A stretch of 64,000 nt of DNA, from contig URDS01000005.1 of NCBI GenBank assembly GCA_900546635.1, positions 73 to 64,072 of the forward strand, written 5' to 3'. Made by a program: the position numbers and the translations under genes. The DNA comes from an uncultured Eubacteriales bacterium. GTDB lineage: Bacteria > Bacillota > Clostridia > Oscillospirales > CAG-272. Each line of letters begins with the position of its first letter. The stretch's first letter is position 1. Below, piece by piece: positions 5,868-56,998 of this stretch. The notes below the pieces were generated by a model. It was not told where the DNA came from and made no database searches. It saw only the letters and a program-made list of their open reading frames with translations.

Positions 5868-5898
5868 AAAAAGCAGCCGCGCACAGGCGGCTGCCTTC
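5868..5898 (-). terminator. tsf terminator copy that retains the U-tract (left copy of the 26-bp duplication)
   Basis: On the minus strand this reads gaaggcagccgc-ctgtgc-gcggctgc followed by TTTTT. Confidence 0.6.
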
Positions 5899-6062
5899 TG
5901 ACCGTCGAAAAACGAAGGTTTTCCGACGATGAGGCGCGTTCGCTCGCGCCGTCGCGCCGCCCTTGGCGGCACTCGCACGCCTGTAAGGTGTTTACAAGGC
6001 GGCACAGGTCCGCCTTGTAAACGTATTTGATTTGCGATTTTCACTTCTTTGACAGACTGAAG
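5899..6062 (+). mobile_element. MITE-like structured repeat, copy A (164 bp)
   Basis: Flanked by 26-bp direct repeats at 5873-5898 and 6063-6088 (25/26 identical). The 124-nt core 5903-6026 matches the reverse complement of 9687-9810 at 116/124 positions with no gaps (hand count). The first 12 nt recur at 63989-64000. No credible ORF. Confidence 0.75.
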
Positions 6063-6151
6063 GCAGCCGCACACAGGCGGCTGCCTTCACTTTCTATCAA
6101 ACGTTTTGTTGTCCTTTTTACAAGCTACCCGGCTTTGGCTTTTATTCGCTT

Positions 6152-7078
6152 TCAGCCATTCACCATTTTATTGATCTCTTCGGCAAAGTTTTCTTCGCGC
6201 TTCTGAATGCCCTCGCCTTTTTCAAAGCGATAGAAAGCCGTAACCGCGATCTTGCCGCCGAACTCTTTGGCGGAAGCTTCAACATACTTCTTTACGCTCA
6301 TGGAATCTTCCTTGACATAAGCCTGCTCTAAAAGGCAATTTGCTTCATAAAACTTTCCGATTCTGCCGTCAACCATCTTTTCCTTAATTTGTTCCGGCTT
6401 CTTCGCGCTCTTTTCATCATTGTTGATCTGAGACATGATGATTTCACGCTCTTCAGCGATTCTGGATGCCGGAACAGCCTCGATGTTGAGATACTCAACC
6501 GGGTATGCCGCAGCCTGCAATGCAATATTCTTCGCAAATTCCGCAAAGCCGGCATTGTTCTTTGCCGCATCATCCGCGTCAAATTTCACAACAACGCCGA
6601 TCGAACCGCCGCCGTGGATATAAGAACTGGTCACGCCCTCCACAACAACGAAACGGCGAATGTCCATCTTCTCGCCGATGGTAAAGATCATTTCTTTGAT
6701 CTTATCCTCAACCGTAATATCCGCATCTGCAAATTTACAAGCCTTCAAAGCCGCTACATCGGCAGGTCTCTGCGCGATGATCGTCTTGAGAATGCCGCGG
6801 ACAAATTCACGGAACGACTCGTTTTTCGCAACGAAATCAGTTTCGGAATTTACCTCAATCATAGCGGAAACATTGTCCTCGGTCAAAATATCAACGATGC
6901 CCTCGGCGGCGATTCTGTCCGCCTTTTTAGCGGCGACCGCCAGTCCTCTTTCACGGAGAACTTTAATCGCCTCGTCCATATTCCCGTCCGCTTCGACAAG
7001 CGCATTTTTGCACTCCATCATGCCGCAGCCGGTCTTTTTTCTAAGCTCGGCAACGTCTTTTGCACTGATTGCAGCCAT
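6152..7078 (-). CDS. tsf: Translation elongation factor Ts
   Basis: MAAISAKDVAELRKKTGCGMMECKNAL N-terminus and an EF-Ts core. ATG 7078 follows GAGGGA. The ORF-track upstream extension is Arg-rich read-through. Confidence 0.95.
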   Translation of the reverse strand: MAAISAKDVAELRKKTGCGMMECKNALVEADGNMDEAIKVLRERGLAVAAKKADRIAAEGIVDILTEDNVSAMIEVNSETDFVAKNESFREFVRGILKTIIAQRPADVAALKACKFADADITVEDKIKEMIFTIGEKMDIRRFVVVEGVTSSYIHGGGSIGVVVKFDADDAAKNNAGFAEFAKNIALQAAAYPVEYLNIEAVPASRIAEEREIIMSQINNDEKSAKKPEQIKEKMVDGRIGKFYEANCLLEQAYVKEDSMSVKKYVEASAKEFGGKIAVTAFYRFEKGEGIQKREENFAEEINKMVNG

Positions 7079-9615: not shown

Positions 9616-9648
9616 AAATTTAAAACAGGGAAGCTACCGCTTCCCTGT
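9616..9648 (-). terminator. rpsU terminator copy that retains the U-tract (left copy of the 26-bp duplication)
   Basis: On the minus strand this reads acagggaagc-ggta-gcttccctgt followed by TTTTAAATTT. Confidence 0.6.
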
Positions 9649-9813
9649 CAGCTTGTCGATCAAGATAAGAATTGCAAATAAAAAAAATACGTTTACAAGG
9701 CGGACATGCGCCGCCTTGTAAACACCTTACAGGCGTGCGAGTGCCGACAATGGCGGCGCGACGGCGCGAGCGAACACGCCCTATCGTCGGAAAACCTTGG
9801 TTTTTCGACGCTC
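9649..9813 (-). mobile_element. MITE-like structured repeat, copy B (165 bp, inverted relative to copy A)
   Basis: Flanked by perfect 26-bp direct repeats aaacagggaagctaccgcttccctgt at 9623-9648 and 9814-9839. The core is 116/124 identical to copy A. Confidence 0.75.
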
Positions 9814-9844
9814 AAACAGGGAAGCTACCGCTTCCCTGTTTTGA

Positions 9845-10021
9845 TTACTTATACTTACGCTTGCGTGCCGCCTCAGATTTCTTTTTGCGCTTAACGCTCG
9901 GCTTCTCATAATGTTCTCTTTTGCGAAGTTCGGTAAGCACACCGGATCTTGCACACTGGCGTTTAAAGCGGCGAAGAGCGCTGTCAAGAGATTCATTTTC
10001 TTTCACTCTGACTTCTGCCAT
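9845..10021 (-). CDS. rpsU: 30S ribosomal protein S21
   Basis: [28 protein letters not shown]. The ATG follows GGGAGGGA. Confidence 0.95.
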
Positions 10022-40025: not shown

Positions 40026-40820
40026 ATGGAACTGAACACTAAAATTCTGATTGCCGATGAAAACCTCGAACAAAGAAATCTTTTGAAAGATAATCTTTAT
40101 CATGCAGGATATCGAAATGTAGATGTCGCTGTCAACGGCGAAGATGCAATTCTCAAAATCAACCGCACACACCCGGACATTGCAATTATTGATATTCTGC
40201 TGACAAAATTGGATGGCATCGGCGTACTCCGCAATGCACGCACGATTGATTTCGGAAAAGACATGCCTACCTCTTTCATTGTGATTTCCGCCGCCGCCAA
40301 TCAAAATCTACTGTCTGATGCAACGAAACTCGGTGCGGAACTTTGTCTGCTGAAACCATACAATTATACCAGCCTGATCGAACACGTTGACGCCATTTCC
40401 GAGCGCAGAGGCAAAACGCGCATCTCTTCTATACACACAAACGAAAGCGCACCGGCGCCTGAAAATCTGGATCTGGAAACGCAGGTTACGCAAATTATCC
40501 ATCAGATCGGCGTACCTGCACACATCAAAGGATACCAGTACCTGCGCACCGCAATCCTGATGACGATTAACGACAGCGAAATCATCAACTCCGTAACAAA
40601 GGTACTCTATCCGTCTGTTGCCAAGAAATACTCCACGACGACTTCCCGCGTCGAGCGCGCCATCCGCCATGCCATTGAAGTCGCTTGGGATCGCGGCGAC
40701 GTGGACACACTGAACGCTTATTTTGGATATACCATCCAAAACAATCGCGGAAAGCCCACAAATTCTGAATTTATCGCCATGATTGCGGACAATCTCCGTC
40801 TGAAACTGAAACTGTTCTAA
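40026..40820 (+). CDS. spo0A: Stage 0 sporulation master regulator Spo0A
   Basis: Receiver domain plus the diagnostic C-terminal block [20 protein letters not shown]...[18 protein letters not shown]...[17 protein letters not shown]. Confidence 0.95.
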
Positions 40821-56818: not shown

Positions 56819-56896
56819 TGGGGTGACTGATGGGATTCGAACCCACGACCTCCAGGGCCACAACCTGGCGCTCTAACCAACTGAGCTACAACCACC
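56819..56896 (-). tRNA. tRNA-His (anticodon GTG), with encoded G-1 and CCA
   Basis: Hand-folded cloverleaf: GGTGGTTG-TA-GCTC...GAGC-G-CCAGG-TTGTGGC-CCTGG-AGGTC-GTGGG-TTCGAAT-CCCAT-CAGTCAC-C-CCA. Confidence 0.9.
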
Positions 56897-56921
56897 ATTT
56901 TCCCCCGCTATTGCAGGGTAA

Positions 56922-56998
<77 letters not shown>

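Follow-up and report, generated by a model that had tools for sequence, protein, structure and literature searches.

A small non-coding element that inserts into terminator-like hairpins and duplicates the whole hairpin

Results

Two copies of one element occupy the terminators of rpsU and tsf

The window, that is, the whole stretch of 64,000 nucleotides analysed here, carries the housekeeping genes of a spore-forming member of the Clostridia, with Spo0A at 40026-40820. Two adjacent tRNA genes on the minus strand (56822-56998) were its sole Rfam matches at the gathering threshold. The genes of main concern are tsf, encoding elongation factor Ts (6152-7078, minus strand, PF00889), and rpsU, encoding ribosomal protein S21 (9845-10021, minus strand, PF01165). 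The terminator of each is occupied by a copy of the same small element, here called copy A at tsf and copy B at rpsU.

At rpsU, the 26-mer AAACAGGGAAGCTACCGCTTCCCTGT stands at 9623-9648 and again at 9814-9839. Direct comparison showed that the two are identical at 26/26 positions and enclose a 165-bp insert (9649-9813), exactly as the original prediction had it. The 26-mer is itself a perfect hairpin with a stem of 10-11 bp and a loop of 4 nt, and the repeat starts 5 nt past the rpsU stop codon. The palindrome beside rpsU (9814-9839) is followed, on the minus strand, by just TTT before the element begins. The distal palindrome (9623-9648) has retained its T-run on that strand and scored as terminator-like (9649..9624, minus strand).

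Ten contigs encoding an identical S21 protein were then compared, eight of which came from other species and showed 79-84% DNA identity around rpsU. All of these eight loci (8/8) have a single hairpin, AAAACAGGGAAGC...GCTTCCCTG, with a T-run directly 3' of rpsU, and the covariance model found the element in none of the ten contigs. The position of the repeat 5 nt past the stop codon and the homologous hairpin and T-run at this place in eight other genomes identify it as the rpsU terminator. Copy B is an insertion into a pre-existing terminator, and the duplicated segment is the target hairpin itself; the earlier argument against an accidental duplication was upheld. In two loci that are 94% identical to the window over rpsU-leuS (L007:3180-3200 and L009:3180-3200), synteny ends exactly inside the 3' arm of the terminator hairpin (AAAACAGGGAAGCGAATGCTTC|GGCCTC...), which places the rearrangement breakpoint within the same rpsU hairpin.

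Copy B lies on the plus strand and is of the short form. The covariance model matched it at 9691-9815 with 148 bits, and its boundary with the right-hand repeat is ambiguous by 1-2 nt. It begins with the left end CAGCTTGTCGATCAAG... and an A-rich tail (9649-9690), which the alignment of copies placed in a minor tail subfamily together with L014, L029, L030, L031, and L044. Hairpin 3 (9691-9723) follows with a 13-bp stem and a 7-nt loop, and reads on the minus strand as a terminator-like site (9725..9689). The next part is the GC-rich branched stem of hairpin 2 (9732-9780), in which the long form of the element has its extra sequence. The last part is the right-end hairpin CGTCGGAAAACC TTGG GGTTTTTCGACG (9785-9810), which is followed by the terminal nucleotides CTC(AA).

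Copy A (162 bp, 5898-6059) is inverted relative to copy B and lies on the minus strand, where the covariance model matched it at 5898-6022 with 149.6 bits. Its right-end hairpin is at 5903-5928, hairpin 2 at 5933-5981, hairpin 3 at 5990-6022, and the tail with the left end at 6023-6059. The tsf terminator palindrome flanks it on both sides, at 5870-5897 distal to tsf, with a T-run on the minus strand, and at 6060-6087 beside tsf. The two palindromes agree at 26/28 positions. An identical 26-bp duplication at both sites had been proposed, which did not hold, as the repeat of copy A is 28 bp long and has two mismatches.

The 124-nt core of copy B (9687-9810) was recounted against the reverse complement of 5903-6026, and the earlier hand count of 116/124 without gaps was reproduced. 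A repeat search joined the two copies over 135 nt at 92%. The eight differences (9706, 9709, 9747, 9751, 9776, 9781, 9782, and 9799) are distributed over the loop of hairpin 3 (two), the loop of the right-end hairpin (one), the loop of hairpin 2 (one), an unpaired linker (two), and the stems of hairpin 2 (two). This agrees with the observation made at the outset that three of the eight fall in the loops of hairpin 3 and the right-end hairpin, both stems of which are intact. A 36-mer of the core occurs twice in the window, compared with 0 occurrences expected from 100 shuffles.

The element belongs to a dispersed non-coding family

About 45 copies were found beyond the window: ~40 in the metagenome OLGD01, one in the MAG CATYXQ01, and the others in strains of the window's species, whose contigs L043, L044, and L045 carry the element at the same rpsU/tsf sites. 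Scanning species-representative genomes with a 22-mer gave one match, in an uncultured Eubacteriales MAG, which is the third copy, and a 20-mer scan of metagenomes gave 30 loci, all from assembly OLGD01. At E<=1e-8, the covariance model matched the OLGD01 loci (203.6 kb) 40 times, with many of these matches at contig ends, and the window twice. The element was absent from plasmids and phages by blastn, and three scans of viral contigs returned 0, one chance match, and 0, respectively. Rfam searches with the whole window at gathering thresholds and with both element forms at E<=10 gave nothing relevant; the best match, frnS, reached 30 bits compared with a threshold of 60, and the long form was also without match. 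Given the few matches in the collections and none in the literature that we searched, the family is rare in public data and apparently undescribed there.

The open reading frames across the element differ from copy to copy, and no predicted protein in a large protein collection shares words with the one that spans the core. The element is non-coding. It exists in a short form of ~162-167 bp and a long form of ~235 bp. In the orientation of copy B, the left end CAGTCTGTCAAAAAAG is followed by the A-rich tail, which falls into two subfamilies (copy B has the minor one, CAGCTTGTCGATCAAGATAAGAATTGC), then by hairpin 3 (GTTTACAAGGCGG-loop-CCGCCTTGTAAAC), the conserved unpaired linker ACACCTTACAGG, the branched GC-rich hairpin 2, and the right-end hairpin (CGTCGAAAAACC-loop-GGTTTTTCGACG). 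The terminal nucleotides are GTC[A/T]G in other copies. The ends are weakly inverted, the left CAGTCTGTCAAAAAA agreeing with the reverse complement of the right, C[A/T]GACCGTCGAAAAA, at ~10-12/15 positions. On the other strand, a T-run stands after hairpin 3, and this arrangement scored as terminator-like in both window copies. With a length below ~500 bp, no coding sequence, many dispersed copies, and target-site duplications specific to each copy, the element has several features of a miniature transposable element with inverted repeats (MITE).

Two observations concern the relations among copies. Identical 125-nt cores were found at three different hairpins (L028:1219-1343, L033:937-1061, and L036:1002-1126), with flanking pairs 1-5 edits apart, which indicates either recent activity or homogenisation of the cores. 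Moreover, an orthologous terminator, whose gene shows 95.6% protein identity, is occupied by different subtypes in L021 (2340-2790), which has two copies tail-to-tail with one common hairpin, and in L011, which has a single tail-variant copy.

Target hairpins are unrelated in sequence and are duplicated whole

Hairpins were defined by a stem of 8-16 bp with <=1 mismatch and a loop of 3-7 nt, giving a span of 20-38 bp. With same-species strains left out of the count, 32 left and 32 right junctions had a hairpin whose end was 0-3 nt away, and nearly every element end adjoins a hairpin in this way, compared with 3.2% of 3000 random positions of the same loci that were positive in the same test. 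The target hairpins are unrelated in sequence across sites, so the targeting looks shape-based: the target is seemingly recognised by shape and not by sequence. The 5' foot was AAA in 22/32 target hairpins and the 3' foot TTT in 21/32, a pattern that has the look of bidirectional intrinsic terminators.

The left and right flanking hairpins were copies of each other in 17 of the ~22 complete copies. Family-wide, the repeat measured 22-31 bp, the two window copies having 26 and 28 bp, and its length tracked the size of the palindrome. The geometry is thus determined by structure rather than by a constant stagger. A defined staggered cut at the base of the hairpin, itself deduced rather than observed, had been proposed from the two window copies. 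The position of the breaks at the hairpin feet (32 + 32 junctions) agrees with this proposal, and the range of lengths speaks against a fixed stagger. Wide variation in length had also been named as what would undermine a defined cut geometry; to the letter, the lengths do vary (22-31 bp), but the breaks are placed by structure.

The folded core is conserved by compensatory changes

An alignment of 22 distinct cores was used for the covariation analysis with 500 column shuffles. In the three-hairpin structure, 97% of the cells were paired, compared with 37-53% when the partners were slid by 1-3 columns. Five pairs change on both sides, and the observed covariation was reached in 0/500 shuffles, a result to be read with the mutual relatedness of the aligned copies in mind, and with the ability of template switching to keep palindromes symmetric without selection. 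In hairpin 2, C-G changed to U-A at columns 46/86; in the right-end hairpin, CGTCGA/TCGACG became CGCCGC/GCGGCG, with two pairs altered on both sides. The substitutions in these 22 copies were biased toward unpaired positions, as had been anticipated: 18/78 paired columns (23%) were variable compared with 20/42 unpaired columns (48%; Fisher p=0.008).

These patterns in the alignment, together with the lack of relatives of the core-spanning frame in the protein collection, support the view that the three internal hairpins are maintained by compensatory changes under structural and not coding constraint, as the preservation of the stems had suggested. The non-canonical stem cells on the copy B strand were G-T in 12 cases and A-C in 4, which is only a hint about which strand folds. 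The internal hairpins could be cis-acting sites for transposition, or hairpin 3 with its T-run could restore termination.

Irregular copies and exchange between copies

Not all copies have the regular arrangement. The loop of one flanking hairpin was clearly inverted relative to the other in L014, L015, and L028 (direct/inverted edit distances of 2/0, 4/2, and 5/2, respectively) and marginally so in L017 and L020, and 11 other flank pairs were plain direct repeats. Such inversions (3-5 copies) are not what a plain staggered cut followed by gap filling would yield; they could have arisen later, through a flip caused by template switching, or during integration as a by-product. In about five copies the left and right flanks carry different hairpins (L023, L029, L030, and L041), as would be expected if copies had recombined with one another. 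Chains of the type hairpin-element-hairpin-element and tail-to-tail pairs with one common hairpin were also found, and both fit repeated hits on duplicated hairpins.

A tail-less 118-nt unit forms tandem arrays at L037:10203-10562 (three units), L018:1906-2146, L026:10640-10854, L029:6828-7181, and L032:4-123, with the junction CGACGG-AAAA-AGGCGG between units. As the unit starts inside hairpin 3, the top of this hairpin (AAGGCGG..CCGCCTT) behaves like a duplicated target.

The core also differs between strains. In L044 (GCA_964324025.1), which belongs to the window's species, both the rpsU and the tsf site carry the long core (L044:190-387 and L044:4057-4254), in which an extra 72-74 nt forms two more hairpins inside hairpin 2. 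The short core is present at both sites in the window (9691-9815 and 5898-6022) and in L043. Since the cores differ while the site-specific tails, ends, and flanks are the same in the window, L043, and L044, the inner part was replaced once the element had inserted, with gene conversion between copies as the probable route. An origin of the short form from the long form by simple slippage was rejected, as the predicted junction mismatched. The loop inversions, tandem arrays, and exchange of short and long cores lie outside the simple insertion model.

Two local structures were resolved separately. A 64-bp repeat in L011 was considered as a long target duplication and rejected: it consists of a 33-bp hairpin together with the initial 35 nt of the element's left end, present a second time, and this extra copy stands after the right-hand hairpin copy, on the reverse strand, at about 6265-6545. 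In L023 (4903-4940), a mini-element made of the left and right ends only (GCAGCATGTCAAAAAAGCTTGTTTTTTCGGCGGTCGG) directly follows the right-flank hairpin of a full copy.

Search for a mobilising enzyme

Pfam annotation of 30 open reading frames of the window revealed no transposase, only housekeeping genes including Spo0A. Neither a transposase nor a complete element bearing the family ends turned up in the window, in 200 kb of related loci, or among plasmids, phages, and viral contigs. A scan of the related loci for the terminal motif detected small copies only, no open reading frame repeated between loci was transposase-like, and palindromic direct repeats 0.25-6 kb apart gave nothing besides the known copies.

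Members of the IS1182 family on Firmicutes plasmids (L050:1099-2924, L053:753-2584, L054:727-2536, and L052) share the end core CTG[G/T]GACA[A/T]AA. Three of these four are located between the two arms of one palindrome, a split hairpin such as AAAAGGAC|IS|GTCCTTTT, then a T-run. They are thus also hairpin-associated, but in a geometry different from that of the present element. The ends of the element match the Firmicutes core at 9/11 and 7/11 positions, a weak agreement in A-rich sequence, and this core had one chance match in the related loci, inside a gene. ISKpn6, reached via blaKPC plasmids, was tried as an IS1182 reference and rejected, as it has a different terminal repeat, no hairpin flanks, and no likeness to the element ends.

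Discussion

The direct repeats recorded in ISfinder for the IS1182 family range from 0 to 60 bp. Within this family, IS1272 and TnSha1 are the documented cases of insertion into hairpins, for the most part transcription terminators, of unrelated sequence and in either orientation, and they delete or replace the stem-loop without duplicating it (PMC5678879, PMC4923244). A published model also holds a second outcome: when a cruciform is attacked at its 5' feet, the whole stem-loop is duplicated (PMC5678879 Fig 13, pathway b; PMC4923244). For further family members that target palindromes, the two papers refer to Siguier et al. (2015). The present element resembles IS1272 and TnSha1 in its insertion into hairpins or terminators without sequence specificity and in its Firmicutes hosts. 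It further resembles IS1272 in that one hairpin may be hit repeatedly and that terminal sequences occur as a tandem duplicate (IS1272L) (PMC5678879, PMC4923244). Unlike both, it is bordered by an intact hairpin at either end, codes for no transposase, and has ends that match the family only weakly. It combines the hairpin-targeting habit known from IS1272 with duplication of the whole terminator and a conserved folded core.

It is highly probable that the element is mobilised in trans, targets hairpins, and duplicates them. The best reading of the data, which we hold with moderate confidence, is that the element is a MITE-like, non-autonomous transposon whose movement depends on a structure-specific transposase joining it at the feet of an extruded palindrome. 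The palindromic intrinsic terminator would be extruded and the element joined at the palindrome feet, and repair synthesis would then remake a complete hairpin on either side, the whole process corresponding to pathway b of the model drawn for IS1272 (PMC5678879). The enzyme would be supplied in trans. Its likeliest kind would be a DDE transposase of the hairpin-targeting IS1182/IS1272 type, an assignment that is tentative and inferred, as no transposase was found in the sequences searched. The two window copies in different terminators, each with its own duplicated palindrome, argue for this reading, together with the chains and tail-to-tail pairs. Against it stand the lack of a transposase or full-length partner in the sequences searched, the deletion or splitting of the hairpin by documented IS1182 members, the weak and A-rich similarity of the ends, the inverted loops and non-matching flanks of some copies, the subterminal hairpins with compensatory changes, which are more typical of single-strand (HUH) than of DDE elements, and the arrays of the 118-nt unit, which fit simple cut-and-paste poorly. 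A precedent for a small relative of the IS1182 family is MITEPye1 of Paracoccus yeei, an IS1182-derived MITE with 4-bp direct repeats and clear 18-bp terminal inverted repeats that match a known IS (PMC11578231). Like the present element, it is small, non-coding, multi-copy, and intergenic, and is presumably mobilised in trans, but it does not target hairpins.

Alternatively, the integration machinery might have a target defined purely by DNA secondary structure, remaking the full terminator on both sides; the conserved, strand-specific core of three hairpins would then serve, in folded form, as an indispensable cis element or RNA cofactor. An IS1182-type DDE transposase would not be required, and the enzyme could be junction-resolvase-like, HUH, or Cas1-like and not yet linked to transposition. 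If this were true, a mechanism acting on hairpins would itself generate the loop inversions and tandem arrays as direct by-products. We consider this alternative unlikely.

A single-strand transposon, whose HUH enzyme (Y1/Y2, IS200/IS605-, RAYT-, or IS91-like) reads folded hairpins in both element and target, would account for the strand-local subterminal hairpins with compensatory changes, for the excess of G-T over A-C as expected if that strand folds, for hairpins as targets, and for the tandem arrays, which recall rolling-circle or one-ended products. However, known HUH transposons insert without target duplication, whereas whole hairpins are duplicated here in most complete copies. Between the left and right hairpins there is no sequence relationship, in contrast to the ends of IS608; a conserved target of 4-5 nt is absent in front of the left end, the targets being unrelated; and neither a tnpA nor a RAYT gene was seen among the 30 annotated window ORFs (Pfam). 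These points make a HUH transposon quite unlikely. Extragenic palindromes also serve as mobility unit or target in REP/BIME/REPIN sequences with their RAYT and in IS1397, ISKpn1, and IS1111-type elements that target REP palindromes; there, the palindrome is a conserved family sequence, whereas the present targets are unrelated and duplicated.

The conserved fold also brings to mind an element that is primarily a structured small RNA or 3'-UTR module, whose spread from terminator to terminator would rest on recombination or gene conversion involving similar hairpins instead of on transposition. Consistent with such a module are the covariation, the conserved unpaired segments ACACCTTACAGG and GAGCGAA, and an additional domain that is optional and has a set position in hairpin 2, a feature of many structured RNAs; hairpin 3 with its T-run resembles a terminator, and the exchange of short and long cores at fixed sites points to gene conversion. 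But the target hairpins share no sequence in which recombination could take place, and the element has defined, weakly inverted ends. Furthermore, neither window copy contains a promoter-like site, Rfam gave no match, and the strand with the G-U excess is not the one on which the terminator is read but its complement. A spreading RNA module is accordingly improbable. Small dispersed intergenic repeats with terminator-like or RNA structures and nested insertions are known from SPRITE, BOX, and RUP of Streptococcus pneumoniae and from Correia elements (PMC10969869, PMC3049150), but these have duplications of 2-9 bp or none, and duplication of a whole terminator is not reported for any of them.

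Intrinsic terminators are targets of other mobile elements as well, and palindromic segments can be duplicated by other integrases. Class C group II introns recognise the stem-loops of intrinsic terminators as structure and home to the position directly behind them. They differ in having ribozyme domains of at least several hundred nt and in inserting by reverse splicing without duplication, and group II intron domains gave no Rfam match in the element even at E<=10. In CRISPR spacer acquisition, Cas1-Cas2 attacks both borders of the repeat and thereby duplicates it, and a Cas1-like integrase of the casposase type that attacked both borders of a palindromic repeat would in a formally identical way duplicate a palindrome of ~22-31 bp. 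The likeness to Cas1-Cas2 and casposons is that integration at both borders of a ~30-bp palindromic segment duplicates the segment, but these systems need sequence-specific repeats or leaders and cas genes, neither of which was seen here. The 30 annotated window ORFs include no cas1 gene (Pfam), casposon duplications are 14-15 bp of fixed sequence, and nothing further points to Cas1, so that we give this explanation very little weight.

Equally little weight falls to a retro-mobilised RNA inserted by target-primed reverse transcription, which leaves target duplications of variable length. One end is A-rich, the other strand ends like a transcript in a terminator hairpin and U-run, and the duplication length is variable; yet this length follows the hairpin exactly and is non-random, the tail has a conserved sequence instead of being homopolymeric, and both ends are sharply defined and weakly inverted. 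A chance repeat or an assembly artefact has a negligible probability, with 0 matches in shuffles and the same structures in independent ENA, NCBI, MAG, and separate metagenome assemblies.

A MITE-like transposon of the favoured kind, which lands only in terminator hairpins and restores an entire hairpin at either border, may have very little effect on the genes nearby. In the window it has entered the terminators of rpsU and tsf, both essential genes, and in one orientation the element brings its own terminator-like hairpin. The ~30 different natural targets offer a way to ask what the transposase reads (a stem of 8-16 bp, a loop of 3-7 nt, and A/T feet). They are also a usable test of the published, unproven IS1182 model, in which attack at the 5' feet of the cruciform leads to duplication and attack at the 3' feet to deletion. 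In practical terms, tandem terminators and dispersed repeats break metagenome assemblies, as indicated by the many copies at contig ends, and the repeats promote rearrangements, as the non-matching flanks suggest. The finding is more general than the two window copies alone had shown, and has moderate to good value for transposon biology.

A minor observation concerns the left end. At 6049-6054 on the plus strand, 5 nt from the left end of copy A, the window has an outward-facing TTGACA, which is -35-like. This hexamer is kept in the major subfamily (TTTTTTGACAGACTG) and could make hybrid promoters that read into the flank.
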